DNA of 64,000 nt from contig CBDCSU010000006.1 of the NCBI GenBank assembly GCA_965221775.1, forward strand, positions 1,696,001 through 1,760,000, given 5' to 3'. This stretch comes from Candidatus Latescibacterota bacterium. Lineage in GTDB: Bacteria > Latescibacterota > UBA2968 > UBA8231. The notes under the pieces were generated by a model, which was given only the letters and a program-made list of their open reading frames with translations, was not told the origin of the DNA and did no database searches. Both the position numbers and the translations under genes were made by a program. Shown here piece by piece: positions 667 to 31,946 of the stretch (position 1 is its first letter; the number at the start of each line of letters is the position of its first letter).

Positions 667-2019
667 ATGGTCCGAGCGGGCCTGTGCGCGGCCCTCGCGG
701 GGGCCTGCTGGCTGCTGGCCGGGGCCGCCGCCGCGGGTGAGCCGGAGACCGAGGCAAGCCGATTCTGGCCCGCCTGGCGCGGCCCCCTGGGCACCGGCGC
801 CTCTCCCCACGCTGAGCCCCCGCTCCAGTGGAGCCAGACCCGCAACCTGCGCTGGAAGGCGTCCCTGCCCGGCGGCGGCCACTCTACGCCGGTGGTCTGG
901 GGCGACCGGGTCTTCATCACCGCCGCAGTCCCGTACGGCGAGCCCCTGCCGCCGACGTACAGCGGGCTGCCGGGCGGCCACGACGAACGGCCGGTCACCC
1001 ATCGCCACCGGTTCGTCGTCCTTGCCCTGAGCCGCACCACGGGGCGGGTCCTCTGGCAGCGGGTCGTGCGCCACGACCTGCCCCGCGCCGGGGGCCACTA
1101 CACCGCCAGCCTGGCCTCCGCCTCGGCGGTGACCGACGGCGAGCACCTGGTCGCCTCCTTCGGCTCCCACGGGATCTACGGCCTCGACCTCGAGGGGGAG
1201 CTGCTGTGGGAGTTGGACCTCGGCCCCATGGAGCCGCTTCACGGCCACGGCGAAGGCAGCTCGCCGGCGCTCGCCGGCGGGACGCTGATCGTCAACTGGG
1301 ACCACGAGGGCGAGTCCTTCCTCGCCGCCTTCGACAAGAGGACGGGCGGCCTGCGCTGGAAGGCTCCGCGCGAGCCGGCCTCGTCCTGGACCACCCCCAT
1401 CGTGACCGACGCCGGCGGCCGCATCCAGGTCGTGGTCAGCGGCTCCGGGGGAGTGCGCGGCTACGACCTGGCCGACGGCCGCAGGATCTGGGAGTGCCCC
1501 GGCCTCTCGGTGGAGAACGTGGTCTCCACGCCGGTGGCCGGCTTCGGCCTCGTCTTCGCGGGCAGCAGCTACGACCGGCAGGCGGTGCTGGCGATTCCGC
1601 TGCAAGCCGCCGCGGACGAGACCGGCGGGCCCCGCCGGGCCGCCTGGAGCCGCACCCGGGGGGCGCCGTACGTCCCCTCCTTCCTGCTCTACGGGGACGC
1701 CCTCTACTTTGTCCGCCACTTCCAGAACATCCTCACCCGCGTCGACGCCCGAACGGGGCGGGACCGGCCGGGGCCGATGCGCCTGAAGGGCCTCGACCGG
1801 GTCTTCGCCTCTCCCGTCGCCGCTGCCGGCCGCGTGTACGTCACCAGCCGCAACGGCGTCACCGTGGTGGTCAGCCACGCCGATTCGCCCGCCCTCCTGG
1901 CCGTCAACCATCTCGACGACAGCTTCAGCGCCTCGGCGGCACTGGCCGGCGGCGAGCTCTACCTGCGAGGACGACACCACCTCTACTGCATCGCGGAGCA
2001 TCCGCCCCCGGCCCGGTGA
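667..2019 (+). CDS. Secreted PQQ-binding-like (BamB-like) beta-propeller protein
   Basis: Signal peptide, WPAWRGP, STPVVWGDRVF and repeated SSP/STP...W propeller blades. Confidence 0.85.
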   Translation: MVRAGLCAALAGACWLLAGAAAAGEPETEASRFWPAWRGPLGTGASPHAEPPLQWSQTRNLRWKASLPGGGHSTPVVWGDRVFITAAVPYGEPLPPTYSGLPGGHDERPVTHRHRFVVLALSRTTGRVLWQRVVRHDLPRAGGHYTASLASASAVTDGEHLVASFGSHGIYGLDLEGELLWELDLGPMEPLHGHGEGSSPALAGGTLIVNWDHEGESFLAAFDKRTGGLRWKAPREPASSWTTPIVTDAGGRIQVVVSGSGGVRGYDLADGRRIWECPGLSVENVVSTPVAGFGLVFAGSSYDRQAVLAIPLQAAADETGGPRRAAWSRTRGAPYVPSFLLYGDALYFVRHFQNILTRVDARTGRDRPGPMRLKGLDRVFASPVAAAGRVYVTSRNGVTVVVSHADSPALLAVNHLDDSFSASAALAGGELYLRGRHHLYCIAEHPPPAR

Positions 2020-2044
2020 ACCCGGCAGGCGCCGGCGGTGTCAA
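2018..2044 (+). promoter_or_regulatory. Candidate ECF-type promoter upstream of the sigma gene
   Basis: GAACCC-N16-GTCAA, then GGAGG RBS and ATG at 2060. Confidence 0.35.
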
Positions 2045-2059
2045 CCGGGTGGAGGCCGG

Positions 2060-2665
2060 ATGGGGAAGAGCGACGAGGAGCTGGTCCGCGGGGTGATCGA
2101 GGGGCGGCAGGAAGACTTCGCCGAGCTCTTCGAGCGCTACCGCGCCGATGTGCAGCGGCACCTGCGGCGGATCCATCGCCATGACGAGGACGCCGCCGAC
2201 GTCGGGCAGGAGGTGTTCCTGCGCCTGTGGCACCGCGCCGGACAGTGGAAGGGCGACGGCCCCCTGCTCGCCTGGCTGCTGCGCATCGCCACCAACCTCG
2301 CCCTCAACCACATCCGCTCGGTCCGGCGCCGCCGCGAGCAGCCGCTGCAGCCGCCCCCCGCCATGGACGGAGAGGAGGAGGACGACACCCGGGTTCCGGA
2401 GTGGATGATCGACGCCTCCACCCTTCCGCCCGACGAGGTCCTGGCCGTGGCCGAGCGCCGGCGGCTGCTGCGCGGCCTGGTGACGCGTCTGCCCGAGGAC
2501 GGGCGCAGGGTCATCCGGCTGATCTACGACGGCCACCTGAACACGCGCCAGGCCGCTACCGAGCTGGGCATACCCGAGGGCACGGTGAAGTCCCGGATCC
2601 ACCACGCCCGCAAACAGATCGCTCGATCCTGGCGCGACCTGGGGATCGACTGGGAGGAGGACTAG
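2060..2665 (+). CDS. ECF sigma-70 family RNA polymerase sigma factor
   Basis: Region 2 DAADVGQEVFLRLW / AWLLRIATNLALN; region 4 ELGIPEGTVKSRIHHARK. Confidence 0.95.
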   Translation: MGKSDEELVRGVIEGRQEDFAELFERYRADVQRHLRRIHRHDEDAADVGQEVFLRLWHRAGQWKGDGPLLAWLLRIATNLALNHIRSVRRRREQPLQPPPAMDGEEEDDTRVPEWMIDASTLPPDEVLAVAERRRLLRGLVTRLPEDGRRVIRLIYDGHLNTRQAATELGIPEGTVKSRIHHARKQIARSWRDLGIDWEED

Positions 2666-2667
2666 GC

Positions 2668-5600
2668 ATGGCGACCGCACCGTCCAACCCGTGGCACAAG
2701 GCGTCCTTCGACGAATTCCTGCACCGCCGCCTTCCCGAGTTGCTGGCCGCACGGCTGGGGGTGACCACCTGCCGCGCCGCAGGGGCCGGCGGTCACGCCT
2801 GCCGGATCGTCCTCGGCGGGCGTTCCGCCGAGGGGGACTTCGAGGTCGAGTACGACGGGCTGCCCGCACCGGACGAGGAGGGCGTCTTCCGGTTGCCGGG
2901 TTCCCCGGACCCGGACGGCGGGCCCCGCCTGCCGCCCCCGAGGACGTACCACGGGGGGGAGCGCGAGCCCTCGGGCGAAGTCGAGCTGGTCGTGCTGCCC
3001 GTGGCCGACCGGGACGACCTGGCCGAGGCCCGAATCGACTGTCTCGGCGACCGGCTCTCGACCTTCATCGAGTCCCGCCTCGGGGAGGTCCCCGGCCACA
3101 CCCCCCTCGACGGGTCCCTCCTGCGGACCCTGGCGCCTCTGAAGGACTGGTTCCACTCCTTCCTGGCCTCCTGCGGCGAGCGGCTCGACGACACCAACTG
3201 GCTGTCCCGGTCCGCGCACCTGCGCCGGATCCTGGTCCCGGACCGCCAGGAGGTATTCACCCCCGGCCACTTCGGCCGCACCTGCCCCTTCGAGACCCCG
3301 GAGGGACCGAACATCGGCCGCGTCCTGACGATCTCCCGGGGCGCGGAGATCCGCGGCCGCCGGCTGGTGATCGTCGACGCGAAGCCCGCGGAGGGACTGG
3401 GCATGTCCAGCGCATGCATCCCCTTCCTCGAGCACGACGACGGCAACCGCGTGCTCATGGGCGCCAACATGATGCGCCAGTGGCTGGCGCCCGCCGAGAG
3501 AGAGCCGGCCTTCGTGCGGACCGGCCTCGAGCCGCGGGCGCCGGACTTCTGGTGCGGCCGGAACCTGCTCACGGCTCTGCTCTCGTGGGACGGGGACGCC
3601 TTCGAGGACGCCGTGCTGCTCAGCCGGTCCGGCGCCCGCAAGCTCGCCTGCCCGGAGCCCCTCGAGCCCGGCGACAAGCTCAGCAACCGCCACGGGATCA
3701 AGGGCGTCGTGTCCCGGGTGGCGCCCGACGAGGAGATGCCGCGGCTGCCCGACGGCACCCCCGTGGAGCTGGTCTTCAGCTTCTCCGGCATTCCGTCCCG
3801 CTGGGTCATGGGGCTGGTCCGGGAGGCCGCCCTCGGACACGCGGCTCACCTGCGGGGGGAGCCCGCCGTCGTGCCCCCCTTCAAGGCGCCTTCCGACGAG
3901 CAGTTGCGGAACCTGCTTCAGGGCAGCGGCCTGCGCGCCGACGGCATGACCACGCTGACCCTCGACGGCACTCCCCTGCGGCGGCCGGCCACGGCCGGAT
4001 CGGTCTACTGGGGCTGCACCGTGCATCGCGCTCGCCCGAAACTGAGGGCCGCCGTCCACCCCGACGACCGGGGCCAGCGCCTGGGGGAGATGGAGGTGCG
4101 GGCCCTGGCCGAGGCCGGGGCGCCCGCGGTGATCCGGGAGCTGACCAACACCTGCTCCAGCCAACGCGGCGACGCCGGTTCCCTGGCCGAGAGGGCCGCC
4201 GCCGGACCGGTCGAGCCGGCGAGCACCCCCTCTCCCGCCTTCTCGGCCCTGGCGGCGGGTCTGGCGCAGGCCGGAATCCGCGCCGAGGCCGGCCCCCGGG
4301 GGGTCGCCTTCCGGTTGGAACCACCCCGGGGGCCGACGCTGTCCCTGGCCGCCGGCGTGCCCCACCCCTGGTTGCCGGGGAAGACCCTGTCCGAGGTCTG
4401 CGCAGCCGAGGGGGCCGCCGGATATCCCGAGGTCCTCGCCGCCAACGGCAGGCTCGCCCGCCTGCCGAAGGACGGGGCTCCCGAGCCCCTGGCAGCCGCG
4501 GCTCTCGACGATCTGGCCGCCGCTGTCTCGGACCTGTACGACGGACTGGCCGCCGCGCCGCGGCTGGGGCGGGATGGGAATGTCCTCTTCAGCGGCCGTG
4601 CGGTGATCGTCCCCGGGGGCGATCTGCCGGCCGACCGGCTCGGCCTCCCGGCGGAGATGGCCTGGAGCCTCTTCGGGCCGCTGGTGGCCCGCGCGCTGGG
4701 GGATCCCGAAGCGGTGGGGCAGCGCTCCACCGAGGCCGAGGCCGCCCTCGCCGCCGCCATGGAGGCCCACTGGGTCATCCTCGGCCACGCTCCATCGGTC
4801 AGTCCCACGGCGATGCTGGCCTTCCGGCCCCTGCCGATCCCGGGCCACGCCATCCGTCTCTGCCCCCTGGCCTGCGGCCTGTTGGACGCCGATTTCGACG
4901 GCGACCAGGCGGCCGTCTTCCTGCCTCTCACGGAGGCGGCTCAGCGCGAGACCCGCGAGCGGCTGTCCATCGCCGGCCACCTGGCCCGTGACCCCGGCCT
5001 CGTGGAGGACCTCTTCCCGCGCATGGACGCCCTCTTCGGGCTGGCCTGCCTCAGCCGCTCGGCAGCGGGCCGGAAGGCGATTACGCAAGCCGCCGGCCGG
5101 GAGCCGAACCTCGAGGGCGGCCTCCTCACCCGCGAGGCGGCGGCGATGCTGCTGCGGGGTGTCCTGACCGACGAGGGGGAGCAGGCGGCCCTGGGCGTGG
5201 CCGCGGAACTGATGCGGTTGGGGTTCGAGACGGCCCGCGCGGAGGGAGGCTCCGTGGGGCCCTTCATCGGCAGCACCCTCGAACTGCCCGTCCCCCCGGG
5301 GGAGGACGACGCGCCGCAGTGGCAGGCCTGCACGGAGGAAGCCCGGGCGATCGTCGCCGGCTTCCGCGACTACGACGACCACGACCTGGGGGCCGCCGCC
5401 CTGCTGTGCCACAGCGGCGCCCGGGCCACGGTCCATCAGCTCACCACCCTGGTGGGGCCGGGCGGACTCGTTCGCGACGTCGAGGGCCGGGTCCTCGGAG
5501 TCGCCCGCTCCTGGCGGGAGGGACTGACCGCGCGGGAGGTGCTGGCCCGGGTCGTCGGCGCCCGCCGCGGCCTGTTCCGCGTCCTGACGGAGTTCGGATC

Positions 5601-5769
5601 CCTCGGCCGGGAGCGGTCCGGGTCCGGGCCGGAGGGGTTCGGCGTCCTGGCCCGGGCCCGCCGGGTCGAGCGCCCGGGCCTCGTCTTCGCGAGGGCTGCC
5701 CTCAGGGGCGAGGTCGATCCCCTGGAAGACGAGCAATCGCGGCTGCTGGTCGGACTGTCCAGGCCGTGA
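2668..5769 (+). CDS. Miniature single-chain RNA polymerase beta/beta' fusion homologue (1033 aa)
   Basis: Collinear RpoB motifs (GRTCPFETPEGPNIG, IPFLEHDDGNRVLMGANMMRQ, FEDAV, GDKLSNRHGIKG, GQRLGEME) then RpoC motifs (SGRAVI, DADFDGDQ, SGAR, REGL..GARRGL) in one open frame. Confidence 0.93.
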   Translation: MATAPSNPWHKASFDEFLHRRLPELLAARLGVTTCRAAGAGGHACRIVLGGRSAEGDFEVEYDGLPAPDEEGVFRLPGSPDPDGGPRLPPPRTYHGGEREPSGEVELVVLPVADRDDLAEARIDCLGDRLSTFIESRLGEVPGHTPLDGSLLRTLAPLKDWFHSFLASCGERLDDTNWLSRSAHLRRILVPDRQEVFTPGHFGRTCPFETPEGPNIGRVLTISRGAEIRGRRLVIVDAKPAEGLGMSSACIPFLEHDDGNRVLMGANMMRQWLAPAEREPAFVRTGLEPRAPDFWCGRNLLTALLSWDGDAFEDAVLLSRSGARKLACPEPLEPGDKLSNRHGIKGVVSRVAPDEEMPRLPDGTPVELVFSFSGIPSRWVMGLVREAALGHAAHLRGEPAVVPPFKAPSDEQLRNLLQGSGLRADGMTTLTLDGTPLRRPATAGSVYWGCTVHRARPKLRAAVHPDDRGQRLGEMEVRALAEAGAPAVIRELTNTCSSQRGDAGSLAERAAAGPVEPASTPSPAFSALAAGLAQAGIRAEAGPRGVAFRLEPPRGPTLSLAAGVPHPWLPGKTLSEVCAAEGAAGYPEVLAANGRLARLPKDGAPEPLAAAALDDLAAAVSDLYDGLAAAPRLGRDGNVLFSGRAVIVPGGDLPADRLGLPAEMAWSLFGPLVARALGDPEAVGQRSTEAEAALAAAMEAHWVILGHAPSVSPTAMLAFRPLPIPGHAIRLCPLACGLLDADFDGDQAAVFLPLTEAAQRETRERLSIAGHLARDPGLVEDLFPRMDALFGLACLSRSAAGRKAITQAAGREPNLEGGLLTREAAAMLLRGVLTDEGEQAALGVAAELMRLGFETARAEGGSVGPFIGSTLELPVPPGEDDAPQWQACTEEARAIVAGFRDYDDHDLGAAALLCHSGARATVHQLTTLVGPGGLVRDVEGRVLGVARSWREGLTAREVLARVVGARRGLFRVLTEFGSLGRERSGSGPEGFGVLARARRVERPGLVFARAALRGEVDPLEDEQSRLLVGLSRP

Positions 5770-5854
5770 CGGCCAGGCCGTGCGGCCTCACCCGCCGACC
5801 GCCTGGGCGTGCCCGCGGGAGTGGTGTCGAGTGTCGGCCCGGCGGCCGGCAGCG

Positions 5855-6784
5855 CTAGCCGTCCGGCCCGCGCAACTCGATGGCGTCCAGCAGTTGCTGA
5901 GGGTTGGCCAGGTCCACGGGCAGGAGCACGTCCGTCTTGCCGTCGGCCAGACCGCGCAACGTCTTGAGATAGCGCTCCGCCAGCTGCAGGTGCACCGACT
6001 GGGCGCCGCCGGCGACGCTGATCGAGGCGGCGATCTTCTCGATCGACTCGGCCGTCGCATGGGCGATGGCCCGGACCTCCTCGGCCTGACCCTGGGCCTC
6101 GTTGATGGTGCGCTGCATCTCGCCCTCCGAGCGGTTGATCAGCTCCAGGCGCCGGCCCTCCGAGGTGTTGATGCGGCTCTGCTTGTCGCCCTCGGACTGG
6201 GCCACGACGGCGCGGCGGTCGCGCTCGGCGGTGACCTGCTTCTCCATGGCGTCCTTCACCGTCGGCGGCGGCGACAGGTTCTTGATCTCGTAGCGGTGGA
6301 CGCGGATCCCCCAGGTCTCCCCCGACCTCTCCAGCACCTCCACCACTTTGGCCGAGATCAGGTCGCGCTCCTCGAAGGTCCGGTCGAGCTCGAGGGTGCC
6401 GATGACCGAACGGGTCGTGGTCTGCGCCAGTTGCATGGCGGCGAAGGAGTAGTTGGTCACCCCGTAACTGGCCTTCACCGGATCGGTGACCGAGATGTAG
6501 AGGACGCCGTCCACCTCGACCTGGACCTCGTCCCGGGTGAAGCACTCCTGGGGCGGCACGTCGACGGTCTCCTCCTTGAGATCGCGGATGAAGGCCACCT
6601 TCTCGATGAAGGGCACGAGGGCGTGGAAACCGGGGTTCAGAGTTCTGGAGTACTTGCCGAGCCGCTCGACGACGTACGCCGACTGGGTCGGCACCAGCCG
6701 GATCGAGCGCAGGAACTTGACGATCAGGACCAGGAACAGGACGGCCCAGACGATGAGGTTGAAGATCTCGAAGACGGTCGACAT
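5855..6784 (-). CDS. SPFH/band 7 (QmcA/paraslipin-like) protein
   Basis: N-terminal TM, VVERLGKY, LAQTTTRSVIG, MEKQVTAER. Confidence 0.92.
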   Translation of the reverse strand: MSTVFEIFNLIVWAVLFLVLIVKFLRSIRLVPTQSAYVVERLGKYSRTLNPGFHALVPFIEKVAFIRDLKEETVDVPPQECFTRDEVQVEVDGVLYISVTDPVKASYGVTNYSFAAMQLAQTTTRSVIGTLELDRTFEERDLISAKVVEVLERSGETWGIRVHRYEIKNLSPPPTVKDAMEKQVTAERDRRAVVAQSEGDKQSRINTSEGRRLELINRSEGEMQRTINEAQGQAEEVRAIAHATAESIEKIAASISVAGGAQSVHLQLAERYLKTLRGLADGKTDVLLPVDLANPQQLLDAIELRGPDG

Positions 6785-6785
6785 G

Positions 6786-7718
6786 TCAGGCCTCCTTCTT
6801 CTGGTTCGGCACGCCGGCGGCGACCTCGCCCAGCCCCTCGAAGAAGCCCTTGATCCGGGCCAGCTCCAGGGGCACGACGGAGACGCTGGACTTGGCGGCG
6901 ATCTCCCGGATCGTCTCGATGTACTCCTCCACCAGCTGCATCTTCAGCGCCGCCGGTCCGCCTTCCTTCTGCACCGCGGCGGCGATCCGCTCGGTGCCCT
7001 CGGCGGTGGCCTCGGCGATGATGGAGATCGCCTCGGCCTGTCCCCTGGCGACGTTGATCCGGCGTTGCTTCTCGCCCTCGGAGATGTTGATCTCCTCCTG
7101 GCGCTCGCCCTCGGAGAGGTTGATGGTGCTCTCCTTCTCCGCCGCGGCGCGGGTGATCTCGGCGCGCTTCTCGCGCTCCGCCTCCATCTGCTTCTCGAGG
7201 GTGTTCACCACGTTCGCCGAGGGCGTGATGTTGCGCAGCTCGTAGCGCAGCACCTTGATCCCCCAGGGATTCGAGGCCTTGTCGATCTCCTGGACGATCG
7301 TCTCGTTCAGGGACTCGCGCTCGTAGAACGACTGGCCCAGGGTCAGCTTGCCGATCTCGGCCCGCATCGTCGTCTGCGCCAGGTTGATGCTGGCGCGGCG
7401 GTAGTCCTCGATGCCGTAGCTGGCGCGCTCGGGATCGAGGACCTGCAGGTAGACCAGGCCGTCCACCTCGACCTGGATGTTGTCGCGCGTGATGCAGGCC
7501 TGGCTGGGGACGTCGATCACCTGCTCGCGCGTCTCGTGGCGATAGGCGATGCGGTCGAAAAAGGGGATGAGGAAGTGGAACCCCGGCTGCAGGACCGCCC
7601 GGAACTTGCCCAGCCGCTCGACGATGACCGCCGCGCGCATGGGCACGACGACAAATGTCTTGAGCACCAGGAACAGGGCGATCAGCACGAGGATCGTGAA
7701 GTACGTCAGAAGGGGCAT
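6786..7718 (-). CDS. SPFH/band 7 (QmcA/paraslipin-like) protein
   Basis: IVERLGKF, CITRDNIQVEVDG, LAQTTMRAEIG, KQMEAEREKRA. Confidence 0.93.
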   Translation of the reverse strand: MPLLTYFTILVLIALFLVLKTFVVVPMRAAVIVERLGKFRAVLQPGFHFLIPFFDRIAYRHETREQVIDVPSQACITRDNIQVEVDGLVYLQVLDPERASYGIEDYRRASINLAQTTMRAEIGKLTLGQSFYERESLNETIVQEIDKASNPWGIKVLRYELRNITPSANVVNTLEKQMEAEREKRAEITRAAAEKESTINLSEGERQEEINISEGEKQRRINVARGQAEAISIIAEATAEGTERIAAAVQKEGGPAALKMQLVEEYIETIREIAAKSSVSVVPLELARIKGFFEGLGEVAAGVPNQKKEA

Positions 7719-7721
7719 CGC

Positions 7722-8186
7722 TCAATTCTCCTGTAAGGGACCGCCGCCGTCGGGCCCGGCGGCCTCGACGACCCACACGAGGTTCTCGCGATAGGCGAGG
7801 ATCGCCTTCTCTCCCGCCTCGATGGTGCCGTCGTAGCAGATCGCCTGCCAGGTGGCGTCCCGGTAGTGGATCCGCCCCGCCTGGTCCGGCGCGATCCTCT
7901 CCACCACGTCCACGACCGTGCCGTAGGCGTCCTCCTCCTCGTCGGTGGACTGTCGCTCGGACCCGCCTCCGACGAAGCGCAGGAAGAGGCCGCGCAGGCT
8001 CAGCAGCAGGACGAGGGAGAGGATGAACCAGGTGGTGAGGGCCGGGATCAGGCCGTCGATCCAGCCCAGCCAGATGAGGGCGGCCACGATCAGGGCGCTC
8101 GACCCGAGAAAGCCGAGCACCATTCCGGGCAGGAACAACTCCAGCAGGATCATGACGGCGCCGGCGACGATCCAGGCTGTGAGCAT
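7722..8186 (-). CDS. NfeD family membrane protein
   Basis: Three hydrophobic helices (LELFLPG) plus C-terminal OB fold (GRIHYRDATWQA); adjacent to SPFH genes. Confidence 0.88.
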   Translation of the reverse strand: MLTAWIVAGAVMILLELFLPGMVLGFLGSSALIVAALIWLGWIDGLIPALTTWFILSLVLLLSLRGLFLRFVGGGSERQSTDEEEDAYGTVVDVVERIAPDQAGRIHYRDATWQAICYDGTIEAGEKAILAYRENLVWVVEAAGPDGGGPLQEN

Positions 8187-21659: not shown

Positions 21660-22702
21660 CAGCGCTCCCCCATAAGCGCCGACGCCGTGCGCCGCCGCAG
21701 CAGGTAGTAGTGGATCAGAGCGCTCCCGGGGAACACGCCTTCCTCCCCCGTCTCGCGGCTGGCGGCGGCGAGTCGGCGGCTGTCACCGCGGCGGCGCCTC
21801 AGGTTGCCCGGATGGGCGGCGATCCAGGCCAGGCCCGCCAGGGGCGCCGCGGCGCAAAGGGGCCGCCGCGCCGCGTAGCGCAGGCAGGAGAGCAGCTCCA
21901 GGAGCACCCGCACGGGCAGGAGCCACAGCAGGCGGCGGGCGGGCAGGTTCTTGATCAGCGCCACCAGGTTGTTGCGGTGGTTGAGATAGGCCTTGCGGAA
22001 GCTGTCGGCCGGGAGGGACTGCCCCGCGTGGTGGAAGACCCTGGACTCCGGCACGGCGAGGATCCGCCAGCCCGCCAGGCGCAGGCGCCAGCACAGATCG
22101 ATCTCCTCGAAGTGCATGAAGTAGTCCAGGTCGAGGGGGCCGACCTCGCGCAACGCCTCGAGACGGAGGAACATCGCCGTGCCGCAGGCCCAGAACAGCT
22201 CCCGGCGGCCGTCGTACTGCCCCTCGTCGCGCTCCACCGTGTCGAAGACCCGGCCCCGGCAGAAGGTGTATCCGAGCCGGTCGATGTAGCCGCCGGCGGC
22301 GCCGCTAGGATCGAAGTACCCCGGCCGGGTCTCCCACAGCAGCTTGGGCTGGCACACGGCCACTTCCGGAGCCTCCGAGGCCGCGTCCTCCAGAGGGGCG
22401 AGCCAGCCCGGCGTCACGCGGGTGTCGTCGTTGAGCAGCAGGGCGAAGGGGGTCTCCGCCGCCTCCAGCCCCCGGTTGCACGAGCCCGTGAAACCCAGGC
22501 GCCGGTCATTGCTCAAAACCTCCATCCGGGGGAACCGGCCGCGGGCGGACTCCAGGGCCGGACCGCCGCCGCCGTCGTCGACGACCAGGACGCGCACCGG
22601 CCGGTCGCTGTGCCGATAGAGGGAATCCAGGCAGTCGCTGAGGGTGTCGGCCCGGTAGTGGGGGATGACGACCGTCGTGGCCGGCTCCGGCCCGGAGGTC
22701 AT
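21659..22702 (-). CDS. Family 2 glycosyltransferase
   Basis: VVDDG, LLNDD, WACGT, FMHFEEIDLCWR. Confidence 0.9.
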   Translation of the reverse strand: MTSGPEPATTVVIPHYRADTLSDCLDSLYRHSDRPVRVLVVDDGGGGPALESARGRFPRMEVLSNDRRLGFTGSCNRGLEAAETPFALLLNDDTRVTPGWLAPLEDAASEAPEVAVCQPKLLWETRPGYFDPSGAAGGYIDRLGYTFCRGRVFDTVERDEGQYDGRRELFWACGTAMFLRLEALREVGPLDLDYFMHFEEIDLCWRLRLAGWRILAVPESRVFHHAGQSLPADSFRKAYLNHRNNLVALIKNLPARRLLWLLPVRVLLELLSCLRYAARRPLCAAAPLAGLAWIAAHPGNLRRRRGDSRRLAAASRETGEEGVFPGSALIHYYLLRRRTASALMGER

Positions 22703-25494
22703 TCGGCCGGGGCGCCGGACCCGGTGGCCGACGTCTCGGCGTCGGCCGTCTCGAGGCGCTCCAGGGCCTTGATCAGGATCTCCCGGTCCAGACTGGCCGA
22801 GTCGAGCTCCCCGTACTCCTCGACGTAGCCCTCGATCACGCCGAGGGCCTCCCGCGCGCGGCCCCCCGCCTGCAGCGTGGCGGCCAGCTCGTGGTAGGCG
22901 GCATAGCCGCGGGGGCGCAGGGCGATGGTCCGGCGGTAGACCTCCTCGGCCCGGTCCAAGGCCCCGTAGTCGTTGTAGAGGATGCTGGCCAGGGCCAGGG
23001 CGTTGTCGTACGTGGCGGACGGGTCGGCGCCATAGCGCTCGACGAGCCCGTGGGCCGCCTTCTCGACGAACTCGGCGGCCAGATCGAACCGCCCCGCCTG
23101 CCGGTAGTTCTCGCTGGCCGCGTAGAGGCCCTCCCATCCCATGGGGACGTTCTCCTCCGCCCACCGGAGCAGCGTCGCCATCTCGTCGACGCGCCCCTCG
23201 GTCTGGTAGATGTCGGCCAGGGTGAGGACGCAGGCCCGGTAGTTCTGCAGCAGCCGGCTGGTGTTCTCGTCCTTGTAGATCGACTCGTCCCGAATGCCCC
23301 GGAAGCGGTAGACCTCCATCAGGTTGCGGGCCAGGGCCTCGGCGTTGCCGCCGCCCCGCACCTTCTCGCGCTTCAGCTTCAGGGTCATGCCCTCCATCTC
23401 GAGATAGGGATCGAGACCGACGCGGTTGGAGCCGGCCACGGTGATGGCGAAGTGGACGGGCCGCCTGAAGTCGTTCCAGTAGACGATGCCGATGACCATG
23501 ATGTCCTGCACCCGCAGCAGATTGTGGCCCGGCGGCGCCGAGACCTCCACGTCGAGTCCGAGGTCCCTGAATTCCCGCGGCCTCTTCGGCGTCAGCCACA
23601 GCCGCTTCTCGAGATCGACCATCTGCGTGTCGGTGAGGGTGGAGTCGATGAAGACGTCGCCCAGCGGCGCCCCGCCGTCCCTGGACATGGCCACCCGGGG
23701 ATCGCGGTCGCGCAGCTGCTTGATGTACCACCCCGTGTTGAGCAGGCTCAGATTGATGATGCTCACGTCCCGGCGGATGCCCTCCACGTGCTGCAGGTAC
23801 CACAGGGGGAAGGTGTCGTTGTCGCCGTTGGTGAAGAGCAGCGAGTTCGGATCGCAGGACTGCAGCAGGTTGTGGGCGTAGTCCCAGGCGATGTAGTCGC
23901 CCCGGCGGTCCTCGATGTGATGCAGCCTCGCGCCGACACCGGCCGGCAGCAGCAGACCGATGCAGGAAACGGCGGCGACCCATCCCGTCCGCAGCGAGAG
24001 CCTCCGGCGCAGGGCCTCGAGGACGGCGGTCCAGCCGAGGCCCATCCACACGGCCCAGGCCAGGAACATGCCCCCGAAGACGTAGTGGCGCTCGCGCGGC
24101 TGCGGGTCGGGCATGTTCAGGTAGAAGGACAGCCCGAAGCCCATGACCAGGAACATCAGGAAGAGGGCCAGGAACCGGCGCCAGTCCCGCCGCAACTGCC
24201 ACCCCAGGCCGAGGAGACCGGCCAGCAGCGGCACGGCGGAGACCGAGATCACGTGGGGCGTCCTCTCGGTGGCCCAGCGGAACACCATGTCCCGCTCGAG
24301 GAAGGGGAAGGGCCACTGCTGCAGGAAGTACTTGAACTGCTGGTGCCACAACTGGTAGACGCGGTCGGCGCGGGGCGTGAGCATGCCCAGCAGCTGGCTC
24401 TCCGTGCCGTACTGCTCGCGGCGGAGGAAGGAGAGGAAGTTGCCCAGGTTCTCCGGGTCGTTCATGTCGATGGCCGGGTCCAGCCCCGAGCGCAGGAACA
24501 GGGCCAGGTAGGTCGAGTACCCGAGCAGGAAGAGGACGCCCACTCCGACCATCAGCCCCAGGGCCCGGCGGTCTTCCCGGTAGAGGTGCACCACCAGGCC
24601 GATACCGCCCGCCAGGAGCACGAGGGCCAGAAGGGGCGCCGAGTCGAGGGCCTTGGCCACGACCACGGCGGCGCCGATGCCGACCGTCACCGCCAGGCTG
24701 TTGCGGTACTCCGGGTGCGTCGAGCCGACGTAGAGGCACAGGGCGACAGCGGCGAGTCCGGCCAGCACGCCGAGGAGTCTCGCCGATGGCGGGTACGGGG
24801 CGAAGGCGCTCATGGACACGGCGGCGGCGAGTCCGGCGACGAGCAGGATCAGGATGGAGCGCCGCAACTGCTGGTCGCCGAACCAGGCCAGCAGCACGAG
24901 GCTGGGGATGGTCAGGAGACAGAGGAGGTGGAGACCGCCCCCGAGCCCGAAGAAGTAGGCGATGAAGAACAGCCAGCGGTCGTTGCCGGCCCCGTGCCGC
25001 GTGCCTTCCCAGTAGAGGATCAGCCACAGGCCGCCGCAGACGAAGAACAGCGAGTAGGCGTAGACCTCGGCCTCGGTGCCGTTGAACCAGAAGGTGTAGG
25101 AGGTGGCCAGGCACAGGGCGGCGACGGCCGAGCCCAGGGTGGCCGTCCAGTCGCGGGCGTCCCCGAAGAAGCGCAGCGCCTCGCCCCCCATGGCGCGGCG
25201 GCAGAGGGCCACGGCGCTCTGGTAGGTGAACCAGACAGCCGCGGCCGATGCCAGGACGGACATGAAGACGACCCGGTTGGCCACGGTCCCTGCGGGGAAA
25301 AGGCTGAAGACCCGGCCGAGGAGGACGTACAGGGGCGACCCGGGCGGATGGGGGATCCCCAGGACGTGGGAGCAGGTGATGAACTCGCCCGTGTCCCAGA
25401 ACGATGTGGAGGGCGCCATGGTCTGCGTGTACAGACCGAGGGTGATCAGGAAGACAGCCCCGCCGGCCAGACGATGCAGTTGTAGTGGGGTCAT
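22699..25494 (-). CDS. DUF2723 (TMEM260-like GT-C) membrane protein with C-terminal TPR-like repeats
   Basis: SFWDTGEF, HPPGSP, EAEVY, REQYG, RERHY, FTNGDNDTFPLWY. Confidence 0.9.
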   Translation of the reverse strand: MTPLQLHRLAGGAVFLITLGLYTQTMAPSTSFWDTGEFITCSHVLGIPHPPGSPLYVLLGRVFSLFPAGTVANRVVFMSVLASAAAVWFTYQSAVALCRRAMGGEALRFFGDARDWTATLGSAVAALCLATSYTFWFNGTEAEVYAYSLFFVCGGLWLILYWEGTRHGAGNDRWLFFIAYFFGLGGGLHLLCLLTIPSLVLLAWFGDQQLRRSILILLVAGLAAAVSMSAFAPYPPSARLLGVLAGLAAVALCLYVGSTHPEYRNSLAVTVGIGAAVVVAKALDSAPLLALVLLAGGIGLVVHLYREDRRALGLMVGVGVLFLLGYSTYLALFLRSGLDPAIDMNDPENLGNFLSFLRREQYGTESQLLGMLTPRADRVYQLWHQQFKYFLQQWPFPFLERDMVFRWATERTPHVISVSAVPLLAGLLGLGWQLRRDWRRFLALFLMFLVMGFGLSFYLNMPDPQPRERHYVFGGMFLAWAVWMGLGWTAVLEALRRRLSLRTGWVAAVSCIGLLLPAGVGARLHHIEDRRGDYIAWDYAHNLLQSCDPNSLLFTNGDNDTFPLWYLQHVEGIRRDVSIINLSLLNTGWYIKQLRDRDPRVAMSRDGGAPLGDVFIDSTLTDTQMVDLEKRLWLTPKRPREFRDLGLDVEVSAPPGHNLLRVQDIMVIGIVYWNDFRRPVHFAITVAGSNRVGLDPYLEMEGMTLKLKREKVRGGGNAEALARNLMEVYRFRGIRDESIYKDENTSRLLQNYRACVLTLADIYQTEGRVDEMATLLRWAEENVPMGWEGLYAASENYRQAGRFDLAAEFVEKAAHGLVERYGADPSATYDNALALASILYNDYGALDRAEEVYRRTIALRPRGYAAYHELAATLQAGGRAREALGVIEGYVEEYGELDSASLDREILIKALERLETADAETSATGSGAPAE

Positions 25495-26231: not shown

Positions 26232-31946
<5,715 letters not shown>

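Follow-up and report, generated by a model that had tools for sequence, protein, structure and literature searches.

YonO, encoded by the B. subtilis prophage SPbeta, combines two double-psi barrels in one polypeptide of about 100 kDa and lacks a trigger loop, and the passages of PMC5467207 that describe its activity report a processive, strict DNA-dependent RNA polymerase despite the missing trigger loop. According to the same passages, it is prophage-borne and has almost no sequence likeness to beta or beta' beyond the metal and substrate ligands. ORF6 of the yeast plasmid pGKL2 (PMC2919709, PMC6211774) is a 982-aa Rpb2::Rpb1 fusion with the beta-like part first and about half of each subunit lost; it is eukaryote-derived, resides on a cytoplasmic linear plasmid and has no sigma factor. 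Full-length RpoB-RpoC fusions (NF007172 and NF011417, ~2840-2890 aa) also hold both subunits in one chain, beta first, but are complete housekeeping enzymes.

We analysed a 64,000-nucleotide stretch (the window) from the genome of a Candidatus Latescibacterota bacterium that encodes a 1033-aa protein with features of each of these systems. The protein resembles YonO in joining both double-psi barrels in one chain that has no trigger loop, but it is plainly beta/beta'-derived, chromosomal and paired with a sigma factor. Size, order of the two parts and extent of loss are shared with ORF6, whereas the motifs of the 1033-aa protein are of bacterial type (GDK..RHG.KG, and a Q following DFDGD) and it matches bacterial beta and beta' best. 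Against the models of the RpoB-RpoC fusions it scored 143-153 bits, compared with cut-offs of 4632-5372, and it is encoded in addition to a normal rpoC. The features of the locus are collected in Table 1.

Table 1. Features of the sigma/polymerase locus, in positions of the window
Feature	Position	Strand	Basis or remark
Putative ECF-type promoter, TGAAC-N15-GGTGTC	2017..2042	+	Conserved motif; promoter function predicted from it
ECF (group 4) sigma factor, 201 aa	2060..2665	+	Pfam Sigma70_r2, r4_2, Sigma70_ECF; TIGR02937
Single-chain minimal beta::beta' polymerase, 1033 aa	2668..5769	+	Pfam, AF2 model, Foldseek, family search
Family-specific N-terminal domain, residues 1-150	2668..3117	+	Without Pfam match; folded in model except loop 80-102
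Beta-like core, residues 151-532 (double-psi barrel and catalytic motifs)	3118..4263	+	Alignment to B. subtilis beta and own beta
EHDD motif, beta side	3430-3441	+	
FED motif, beta side	3601-3609	+	Aligned to matching B. subtilis beta motif
GDK..HGIKG motifs, beta side	3670-3705	+	Aligned to matching B. subtilis beta motifs
PSR motif, beta side	3793-3801	+	Aligned to matching B. subtilis beta motif
Beta' clamp-helix hairpin, residues 586-627	4423..4548	+	Aligned to own canonical beta' 250-296; model helices 586-601 and 606-627
GHAP, G706-H707-A708-P709	4783..4794	+	His at sugar-selecting Arg position; H707 codon 4786-4788
DADFDGDQ, D740-Q747	4885..4908	+	D740 at Asn position
Bridge-helix-like helix, residues 955-981	5530..5610	+	Residues 907-969 align to own beta' 676-747 (E 0.001); DSSP of model
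C-terminal segment, residues 1006-1029, like last conserved block of beta'	5683..5754	+	Weak local alignment to own beta' 1278-1301 (E 1.3); conserved in family

Architecture and distribution of the fused protein

The polymerase gene lies within a longer open frame (2227-5769). Its true start is the ATG at 2668, where third-position G+C rises from about 0.5 to about 0.9; the preceding gene ends at 2665. Three Pfam domains were found above their cut-offs, namely Rpb2_3, Rpb2_6 (94.6 bits versus 23.4, E 9e-27) and Rpb1_2 (52.1 bits versus 25.3, E 1e-13), and all Pfam and NCBIfam matches were confined to the core beta and beta' blocks. An AF2 model of the protein (pLDDT 90.1, pTM 0.87) had bacterial beta and beta' as its best PDB matches in Foldseek. 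The protein is not a separate full-length subunit of either kind, scoring 162.5 bits with TIGR02013 (cut-off 801) and 99.9 with TIGR02386 (cut-off 963.5). As a full-length rpoC (1771.9 bits) is encoded on contig C4, the 1033-aa protein is not the housekeeping enzyme of this genome but is encoded beside it.

The protein is a pared-down bacterial beta fused to a pared-down beta', with the beta part first. Retained are the two double-psi barrels with their catalytic residues, the clamp helices, the bridge helix and the C-terminal anchor. Lost are the beta lobes, the flap, the beta' N-terminal zinc/zipper region, most of the rudder/switch-2 stretch (by alignment to the genome's own beta') and the entire trigger loop. 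Approximately 550 residues of the canonical lobes are replaced by residues 1-150, for which the ESM Atlas gave viral proteins with Rpb2 domains 1 and 2 as a lead (score 0.92; the number of shared features falls short of the trusted range). Between residues 325 and 326 the flap is absent, together with its flap-tip helix, to which sigma region 4 is anchored in canonical holoenzymes; the gap amounts to ~247 residues relative to the genome's own beta and ~140 relative to that of B. subtilis. Only 64 residues follow the GARRGL motif at the start of the bridge helix, compared with ~567 in the genome's own beta', and the trigger loop is therefore missing; the trigger-loop region of TIGR02386 and of the other profile models found no match in the protein.

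Both barrels carry what is expected of a two-barrel polymerase: DxDGD in the beta' barrel, and both Lys of GDK..KG together with the acidic ED pair in the beta barrel. The first-pass annotation had reported an intact Asp triad and apparently retained beta-side motifs. All three Mg-binding residues (D742, D744 and D746) are indeed present, and D744, G745 and D746 are invariant across 58 sequences; K337, R341, K345, R378, E255, R270, Q271 and D336 are likewise invariant in the family, and D314 and H453 are conserved in at least 90%. The FED, GDK, HGIKG and PSR motifs were all recovered by alignment to B. subtilis beta and are invariant or at least 90% conserved. As to the counterpart of H1237 proposed at the VH motif, H453 is well conserved and aligns with the first His of the B. 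subtilis stretch AHMVDDKLHAR, and the second His of that stretch aligns with R460; E. coli H1237 may correspond to either column. The Asp triad is degenerate in 4 of 104 representatives (P0160, P0161, P0183 and P0190), and catalysis may therefore be dispensable in some lineages, as judged from these sequences.

Of the candidates scored in a protein search, 307 matched at E <= 0.001. The best 120 of these are 43-98% identical and mostly 1000-1090 aa long, with a few shorter fragments, and every named protein among them is annotated as hypothetical. Gemmatimonadota, Poribacteria, Armatimonadota and Hydrogenedentes are hosts among the matches listed, and further family loci were found in Latescibacterota, Caldilineaceae and Spirochaetales by a related-locus search of genome contigs, in which 5 of 80 loci were family members and the rest were dominated by canonical rpoB. 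Identity between phyla is 40-46%. The gene is present in 65 of 168 genomes of the window's phylum and in four of the nine other genomes of its genus. Most sequencing runs that contain the window's sequence are labelled sponge metagenome, and phyla characteristic of sponge microbiomes commonly carry the sigma/polymerase module.

No family member was found in the phage and plasmid collections. Searching 50,697 phage records by tblastn gave canonical rpoB/rpoC-type matches only, none of which covered at least 80% of the query, and the viral structure library held nothing closer than cellular-type RNA polymerases. The window's neighbouring genes are ordinary chromosomal ones. In full texts from outside the subscription journals, no description of this family was found, and the main text of the ECF re-classification paper PMC7826278 contains none of the terms Rpb2, RpoB, beta subunit or Gemmatimonadetes, although its supplementary neighbourhood tables might list this sigma group. 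A single-chain polymerase family of ~1000 aa with its own sigma factor thus appears to be undescribed.

The dedicated ECF sigma factor and its putative promoter

The stop codon of the sigma gene lies 2 nt ahead of the polymerase ATG. Its product has regions 2 and 4 only and scored 89.9 bits with TIGR02937 (cut-off 42.9), which places it among the ECF sigma factors, and its sigma2-sigma4 linker is unusually conserved. An orthologous sigma gene is directly upstream of the polymerase in 23 of 25 loci, a count that includes the window itself and two loci of identical sequence (L006 and L093); of the other two, one has no upstream sequence and one has the sigma gene 2.4 kb upstream. Orthologues scored 293-307 bits and other ECF sigmas no more than 103. 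A sigma orthologue was present in all five genomes with the polymerase and absent from all five without it (best match 99 bits), and the two polymerase copies of G071 each have their own sigma. The two genes are thus gained, lost and duplicated together. A dedicated sigma whose sole task is to drive expression of the gene would account for this co-inheritance equally well. Within 6 kb of the module there are no other conserved genes, including no alpha-like or omega-like gene.

ECF sigmas are usually, though not obligatorily, co-transcribed with an anti-sigma factor. None was found by the module, where the sole conserved neighbour of the sigma is the fused polymerase. It could accordingly be argued that the fused protein is itself a non-catalytic, anti-sigma-like sink that binds the sigma: its gene occupies the usual anti-sigma position immediately downstream of the ECF sigma, it keeps the clamp helices, and the Asp triad is lost in a few representatives. 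We give this view very little credence, as both barrels have the same Mg- and NTP-binding residues in all phyla and a 1033-aa fold maintained at 40-46% identity between phyla far exceeds the needs of a sink.

Autoregulated ECF promoters have a GAAC-type -35 and a GTC-type -10 element. The putative module promoter fits this form with ordinary -35/-10 spacing; the stop codon of the preceding gene supplies its first three bases, and 17 nt separate its end from the sigma start codon. Among the 16 related loci that have 55 nt or more of sequence upstream, 14 contain the strict motif, which in 13 ends 17-22 nt before the start codon, and by this measure the predicted promoter is conserved across phyla. 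Throughout the 5.36-Mb window genome (G000), it is the sole match above 16 bits to the position weight matrix. The strict pattern has two matches genome-wide, so no regulon of further such promoters was found in this genome beyond one strict-pattern match at chance level. When five other genomes were scanned, the module promoter was the only consistently placed match, and additional matches stayed close to what the reversed-pattern control gave. Neither a sigma-70-type promoter nor an intrinsic terminator was found in 1900-5950. A contig from an RNA library (run X20), belonging to a relative of ~92% identity, spans the sigma gene and the start of the polymerase and begins upstream of the promoter; such evidence comes from assembled contigs, which carry neither strand nor transcript start, and the contig may be DNA carry-over.

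The clamp helices of beta' are the canonical docking site of sigma region 2. When the sigma was co-folded with residues 1-790 of the fused protein, ipSAE values of 0.53, 0.48 and 0.54 were obtained, compared with 0.00 for the best control, with partner pLDDT of at least 64 and agreement between runs in at least 44% of contacts. Of 80 solved complexes used for calibration, 58 reached the mark, as did 2 of 110 mismatched pairs; passes at or below 0.60 comprised only 7 of the 80 solved complexes plus both mismatches. The predicted complex lends weak support to sigma docking, and memory of solved sigma-RNAP complexes may contribute to it.

The sigma may instead be a regulator only, which works with the host core to drive its own two-gene operon, with the fusion as sole output, while the fusion acts sigma-free on single-stranded DNA, nicks, ends or RNA. 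The promoter geometry is that of a canonical ECF promoter, only one strong instance occurs in the genome, the flap, the anchor of sigma region 4, has been lost, and both YonO (PMC5467207) and QDE-1 (PMC9508822) are active without sigma in the parts of those papers that treat their activity. Deletion of the flap tip is a point against sigma acting on the fusion, and sigma acting with the host core would suit the ordinary ECF spacing no less well. Nevertheless, we regard a purely regulatory sigma as somewhat unlikely: the clamp helices survived the deletion of nearly all other non-catalytic modules, the linker of the sigma is conserved, co-folding was weakly positive, and such a sigma would form a pure positive-feedback loop without anti-sigma control.

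The two sugar-contact positions

The first-pass annotation drew attention to GHAP and DADFDGDQ in place of the NRAP and NADFDGDQ of canonical beta'. Both motifs were confirmed in the frame of one ORF. The genome's own housekeeping beta' (L001, contig C4) aligns without gaps over residues 702-763 (E 5e-25), with its NRAP facing GHAP and its NADFDGDQ facing DADFDGDQ. This gap-free alignment makes H707 the true counterpart of E. coli beta' R425 and D740 that of N458 (numbering of PMC7862312), as had been proposed. Both sugar contacts of the canonical core, Arg and Asn, are thus absent from this protein, and the family consensus has both. Sequencing error was considered as a source of the substitutions and rejected, since the His occurs in eight protein clusters of different origin and in three further genomes of the genus, where its codon is CAC or CAT.

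The substitutions do not define the enzyme family, because most homologues retain the canonical residues. The Arg is kept in 109 and the Asn in 72 of 117 parsed close matches; in alignment-based counts on the tree-set representatives, restricted to rows that have a residue at the column, the figures were 86 of 103 for Arg and 62 of 104 for Asn. The first-pass annotation had proposed relaxed or changed substrate use, such as dNTPs, primer or short-oligonucleotide synthesis, or hydrolysis; its own check, conservation of the two positions among homologues, speaks largely against this, and dNTP use, priming or hydrolysis would be conjecture. His at the Arg position is confined to the window's closest relatives and two other representatives, and relatives P0009 (84% identity) and P0010 (81%) retain Arg, in P0009 together with Asp, while homologues such as L004 and P0012 have Arg and Asn; as read from this distribution, Arg to His is a recent variant of a genus-level clade. 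Natural variants in the family include Arg, His, Lys, Ser and Gly at the R425 position and Asn, Asp, Gln and Glu at the N458 position, and an independent-pairs sign test over the family (median p 1) detected no coupling between loss of the Arg and loss of the Asn.

Six pairs within the His clade gave dN/dS of 0.29-0.38. Such values, being well below 1, indicate purifying selection, yet ~0.3 is not strong constraint. They bear on whether the gene is decaying in this clade, with the substitutions as early signs of a loss of function. Two residues described as universally conserved have changed, the dN/dS is moderate, and presence is patchy in the genus; but all four clade genomes have full-length frames without stops, dN/dS is well under 1, the His codon varies synonymously, and the Asp triad and beta-side residues are intact. 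We consider decay extremely unlikely.

The only experimental guide to the consequences of these changes comes from E. coli. In the sections of PMC7862312 on sugar selection, R425 is the main selector between NTP and 2'-dNTP, with R425K cutting selectivity 17-fold at binding and 25-fold at incorporation, whereas the effect of N458S is below 5-fold. Those mutants alter the same two positions, but they are laboratory-made, in an enzyme with a trigger loop, and carry substitutions other than His and Asp, whereas the changes here are natural, fixed in a clade and in a protein that has no trigger loop. The third sugar contact, trigger-loop Q929, is impossible here because the trigger loop is missing. 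By analogy with R425K/L, the change in the His clade would probably weaken discrimination against 2'-dNTPs and leave the kind of reaction as it is; His at the R425 position could, however, still hydrogen-bond the 2'-OH.

A stronger proposal is that the His clade has shifted toward 2'-dNTPs, making DNA, mixed polymers or primers, with H707 in a role that resembles to some degree the His steric gate of archaeal PolD. In favour of this, the clade has lost the Arg that works against dNMP incorporation, replacement of that Arg (R425K/L) relaxes selectivity in E. coli in the relevant sections of PMC7862312, and the trigger-loop Gln is absent. PolD, the only two-barrel DNA polymerase, has GLAPHT for RxPxLH in its DP2 subunit, with a His gate on the same Arg-bearing selectivity loop pointing at the sugar (PMC7708050). 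In GLAPHT the His follows the Pro, whereas in GHAPSV it precedes Ala-Pro; the His here is at the Arg position, three residues ahead of that of PolD, where this protein has Ser. There is no DP1 partner and no other PolD feature. Moreover, sister lineages of 81-84% identity retain Arg, His is sporadic elsewhere in the family and changed to or from other residues four times on the tree, like tolerated drift, and removal of the gate alone in PolD gave no sustained synthesis of the other polymer (PMC7708050). A shift toward 2'-dNTPs is thus quite improbable.

Proposed working and significance

Given the architecture, residue equivalence, conservation pattern, sigma linkage and promoter established here, the reading we favour, and hold to be somewhat probable, is that the protein is an active RNA polymerase lacking a trigger loop, in a module with a dedicated ECF sigma that probably docks on its clamp helices to initiate. 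What we infer, namely that the protein is catalytic, that the sigma docks on it and that sugar selection may be affected, would fit together as follows. The sigma would switch the two-gene module on by autoregulation, and the fused protein would be a template-dependent RNA polymerase without a trigger loop, as YonO is. The same sigma would probably dock on the clamp helices of the fused protein for initiation. Within the genus-level clade, the change of Asn to Asp came first and that of Arg to His later, in a protein still under purifying selection. Against this reading, the module's own promoter is the only recognisable one of its type in the genome, which would leave a sigma-dependent mini-polymerase without an evident other target.

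Two extensions of this reading go further. The sigma and the 1033-aa fusion may form a self-contained two-protein system, with the sigma docked on the retained clamp helices, that needs no alpha, omega or host core, a tentative idea that we find plausible but short of an even chance. That this system has, in addition, lost its ribose gate (Arg to His, Asn to Asp and no trigger-loop Gln), accepts 2'-dNTPs and makes DNA or mixed polymers is improbable.

To our knowledge, a five-subunit core of ~400 kDa, the trigger loop and the Arg/Asn sugar contacts are regarded as near-universal in transcription enzymology. Here, a widespread chromosomal family with clear beta/beta' sequence has lost approximately 60% of that mass, trigger loop and flap among it, and is linked to a sigma of its own. 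Its natural variants at the sugar positions make the R425 mechanism of choice between NTP and dNTP testable without a trigger loop. If active, the family would define a minimal bacterial-type catalytic core and would offer synthetic biology a small orthogonal sigma/polymerase/promoter triple. If the pair is self-contained, it would be the smallest sigma-dependent cellular-type RNA polymerase, and if the ribose gate is also lost, it would be a living intermediate on the path from RNA to DNA polymerase that has been supposed for PolD.

The polymerase gene and its single-chain product

The motifs GHAP (4783-4794) and DADFDGDQ (4885-4908) lie in the same long reading frame. The G+C content of the window is 71%. 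At the ATG at 2668 the third-position value climbs from about 0.5 to about 0.9, and a separate upstream gene ends at 2665; this ATG was therefore taken as the start. Two minus-strand open frames opposite the gene (2662-5736 and 2793-3809) were rejected as shadows of a coding sequence rich in G+C; where other loci have 'homologues' of them, these too run antisense to the polymerase gene. The coordinates of the module and its surroundings are collected in the table.

Features of the sigma-polymerase module and its neighbourhood
Feature	Position	Strand	Context or size	Basis or remark
PQQ/BamB-like beta-propeller gene	892-2019		directly upstream of sigma	N-terminal hydrophobic stretch
Promoter-like motif TGAAC-N15-GGTGTC	2017-2042		in 40-nt gap after upstream beta-propeller gene	cross-locus conservation
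ECF sigma gene	2060-2665	+	2 nt upstream of polymerase gene	
Polymerase gene	2668-5769	+	1033 aa	third-position G+C, upstream gene end
Two tandem SPFH/Band-7 genes and NfeD-like gene	5855-8186	minus	convergent to polymerase gene	
Two very large ORFs	22699-25419, 26232-31946	minus	907 and 1905 aa	high third-position G+C

Pfam matches above cut-off were Rpb2 domain 3, Rpb2 domain 6 and Rpb1 domain 2, and in NCBIfam the protein matched only fragments of rpoB and rpoC, far under the equivalog cut-offs. As a normal rpoC is present elsewhere in the genome (contig C4, 1771.9 bits), the gene is a reduced paralogue, and its identity as the housekeeping enzyme was ruled out. An AlphaFold2 model from 58 sequences (pLDDT 90.1, pTM 0.87) had bacterial beta and beta' chains as its top PDB matches.

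Relative to the housekeeping beta subunit of the same genome, four blocks are retained (residues 201-228, 236-291, 293-325 and 326-532), with about 72, 89 and 247 canonical residues absent between successive blocks; the last gap is the flap. The N-terminal 150-200 residues stand in place of about 550 canonical residues and have no Pfam match; in the ESM Atlas, viral proteins that contain Rpb2 domains 1 and 2 came up as a lead, but below the trusted range. Compared with the housekeeping beta', the N-terminal ~250 residues are reduced to ~50, the clamp-helix hairpin is retained (residues 586-627), and the rudder/switch-2 stretch has lost about 25 residues. Residues 907-969 match the F-loop and the start of the bridge helix (E 0.001), beyond which 64 residues are left versus ~567 in the housekeeping subunit; residues 1006-1029 weakly resemble the beta' C-terminal block (E 1.3). 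The trigger loop is absent, which leaves Gln929, the trigger-loop residue published as the third sugar contact, without a counterpart.

The beta-side residues that the first-pass annotation listed as retained were found present and conserved, E. coli H1237 having two candidate aligned positions, H453 or R460. YonO, a single chain without a trigger loop, is described in PMC5467207 as processive and as a strictly DNA-dependent RNA polymerase. Given this precedent, the confident fold and the conservation of catalytic residues in both barrels, the protein is most likely an active template-dependent RNA polymerase. Four representatives of the family (P0160, P0161, P0183 and P0190), otherwise full-length or nearly so, have a degenerate Asp triad (e.g., DFDGN, or no Asp at all); they could be catalytically inactive offshoots or artefacts of assembly.

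The sigma gene and its putative promoter

Across 25 loci, including the window itself and two identical ones (L006 and L093), a sigma orthologue lies directly upstream on the same strand in 23, with 43-55% identity across phyla. Loci with adjacent sigma come from Gemmatimonadota, Poribacteria, Caldilineaceae and Latescibacterota. The two exceptions are L008, without upstream sequence, and L100 (genome G108), where the sigma is 2.4 kb upstream. No other conserved neighbours were found within 6 kb of the module. The orthologues scored 293-307 bits, versus at most 103 bits for the next ECF sigmas, and by sequence constitute a distinct orthologous group. This sigma was present in all five genomes with the polymerase and in none of five genomes without it, two of the latter being of the same genus as the window. 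Genome G071 carries two complete pairs (C1:1427411-1431186 and C1:3367758-3371728), each polymerase adjoining its own sigma copy.

Of the 16 loci offering 55 nt or more of sequence upstream of the sigma gene, 14 carry the motif TGAAC-N15-GGTGTC there, and the remaining two have near-variants. In 13 of the 14 motif-bearing loci it ends 17-22 nt before the start codon. It is conserved over at least four phyla (the window, L004, L005, L088-L092, L094, L097, L098 and L103), and several loci additionally share the next ~20 nt, ribosome-binding site included. The strict pattern occurs twice in the 5.36-Mb genome, about the chance number (the window and C6:878702-878727); with a weight matrix from 12 instances, the window's own included, its promoter was the sole site above 16 bits. 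When five other genomes were scanned, the module's own promoter was found each time, with 1-6 extra matches per genome versus 0-3 for a reversed-pattern control. To judge from these scans, the sigma's only evident target would be its own two-gene operon. Two identical extra copies of the pattern (L104 and L109; G010:C1:244168-244193 and 1476025-1476050, minus strand) lie within a ~100-nt repeated sequence, with no ORF of at least 60 aa starting within 120 nt downstream; they may be targets or promoters of small RNAs, or the repeat may match the pattern by chance.

The polymerase possibly employs this sigma as its initiation factor. The two are inherited and duplicated as a pair, the clamp helices are kept, and the sigma linker is conserved; however, the flap is missing, the promoter geometry suits the host core, and the genome holds no other such promoter. 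Co-folding of the sigma with polymerase residues 1-790 gave 0.53, 0.48 and 0.54, versus 0.00 for the best of three controls (partner pLDDT at least 64; runs agreeing in at least 44% of contacts), which the tool grades as weak support. In the tool's calibration, 58 of 80 solved complexes and 2 of 110 mismatches passed the mark, passes at or below 0.60 comprising only 7 of the 80 solved complexes but both mismatches, and likeness to solved sigma-RNAP complexes can yield such a score.

Within the linker that joins sigma regions 2 and 4 (residues 113-125, window 2396-2434), P113 is invariant and W115, D118, P124 and D125 are at least 90% conserved. This motif of Pro, Trp, acidic residues and Pro-Asp equals the DNA-binding regions in conservation, an unusual feature in an ECF sigma.

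Distribution, neighbours and habitat

Of 168 genomes from the phylum, 65 carry the polymerase (E ≤ 1e-60); within the genus it occurs in 4 of the 9 genomes besides the window's own. Its distribution is patchy and mostly single-copy. No family member was found in phage and plasmid collections. The closest known enzymes are YonO, the pGKL2 ORF6 Rpb2::Rpb1 fusion (described in passages of PMC2919709) and full-length RpoBC fusions. None of these three combines clear bacterial beta/beta' sequence, a length of ~1000 aa, chromosomal location in several phyla and a dedicated sigma. Full-text literature searches found no description of such a family, although supplements or other journals may mention one.

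Neighbouring genes in the window are ordinary (SPFH/NfeD, DinB-like, 2-hydroxyacid dehydrogenase and enolase-superfamily protein). The SPFH/NfeD genes form a membrane-scaffold operon of ordinary type, and in other genomes it shows no link to the module. The stop codon of the beta-propeller gene overlaps the -35 element of the promoter motif. Upstream of that motif, the final ~80 nt of the coding sequence are almost unchanged in the two same-genus loci examined (L086 and L087); in L004-L007, the four cross-phylum loci used for comparison, the gene is not conserved.

Of the sampled words of 1800-5900, half or more were present in each of 19 sequencing runs, most labelled sponge metagenome; this is the main label of runs X5-X19. 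Several groups with the module, namely Poribacteria, Latescibacterota, Caldilineaceae and Gemmatimonadota, are typical sponge symbionts. Together, labels and phyla hint that the module spread within that habitat. One metatranscriptomic run yielded a 1070-nt contig, ~92% identical, that covers 1912-2987, from the last part of the upstream gene through the sigma gene into the beginning of the polymerase gene; its source is a relative, and it may be DNA carry-over.

Sugar-contact residues

The housekeeping beta' aligns with polymerase residues 586-763 (E 5e-25), without gaps over 702-763, where GHAP falls under NRAP and DADFDGDQ under NADFDGDQ. H707 thus corresponds to E. coli beta' R425 and D740 to N458, as the first-pass annotation had proposed. 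Among 117 parsable sequences from the best 120 of 307 matches at E ≤ 0.001, 72 carried Arg/Asn, and the others Arg/Asp (17), Arg/Gln (14), His/Asp (8), Arg/Ser (2), Arg/Val (2), Arg/Glu (1) or Arg/His (1). All eight with His for Arg were the window's closest relatives (77-98% identity). P0009 (84% identity) and P0010 (81%) retain Arg together with Asp, indicating that Asn changed to Asp first and Arg to His later.

When 104 representatives clustered at 50% identity were aligned with the query, Arg was found in 86 of the 102 rows having a residue at the column. In a FastTree set of 104 full-length members, the Arg column held Arg 86, His 9, Lys 3, Gly 2, Ser 1, Cys 1 and Ala 1, and the Asn column Asn 62, Asp 32, Glu 4, Gln 3, Gly 2 and Ser 1. 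On the tree, gain or loss of Arg needed at least 10 changes, that of His at least 4 and that of Asn at least 22, and an independent-pairs test on this set revealed no coupling of the positions. The Caldilineaceae locus L005 has Ser in the first and Gly in the second. Both positions are called universally conserved in canonical enzymes in passages of PMC7862312. Given the residue counts and repeated changes, they are looser in this family, whose consensus is nevertheless canonical Arg/Asn. The alteration is real in the window and does not extend to the family consensus.

The polymerase gene is intact in the His clade, with dN/dS of 0.29-0.38 over six pairs (polymerase gene alone), and both CAC and CAT serve as the His codon. 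A second Arg-to-His change occurs in this clade at residue 729 (window 4852-4854), ~22 residues downstream of 707, giving PGH versus GGR in the Arg-bearing sisters.

For H707 and D740, experimental guidance comes solely from two studies of other enzymes, E. coli RNA polymerase and PolD. According to passages of PMC7862312, the E. coli R425K substitution cuts selectivity 17-fold at the binding step and 25-fold at the incorporation step, R425L additionally abolishes the pre-dNMP pause, and N458S has a less than 5-fold effect. PolD has its steric gate against rNTPs on the same loop, a His located three positions further on (GLAPHT; PMC7708050). By analogy, His707 and Asp740 without a trigger loop plausibly lower dNTP discrimination. 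Tolerated drift at a relaxed site explains His707 at least as well as new chemistry, as His and other residues recur sporadically in the family and Arg is kept in sisters 81-84% identical. The altered sugar-contact residues are a clade-level detail of the mini-polymerase family.
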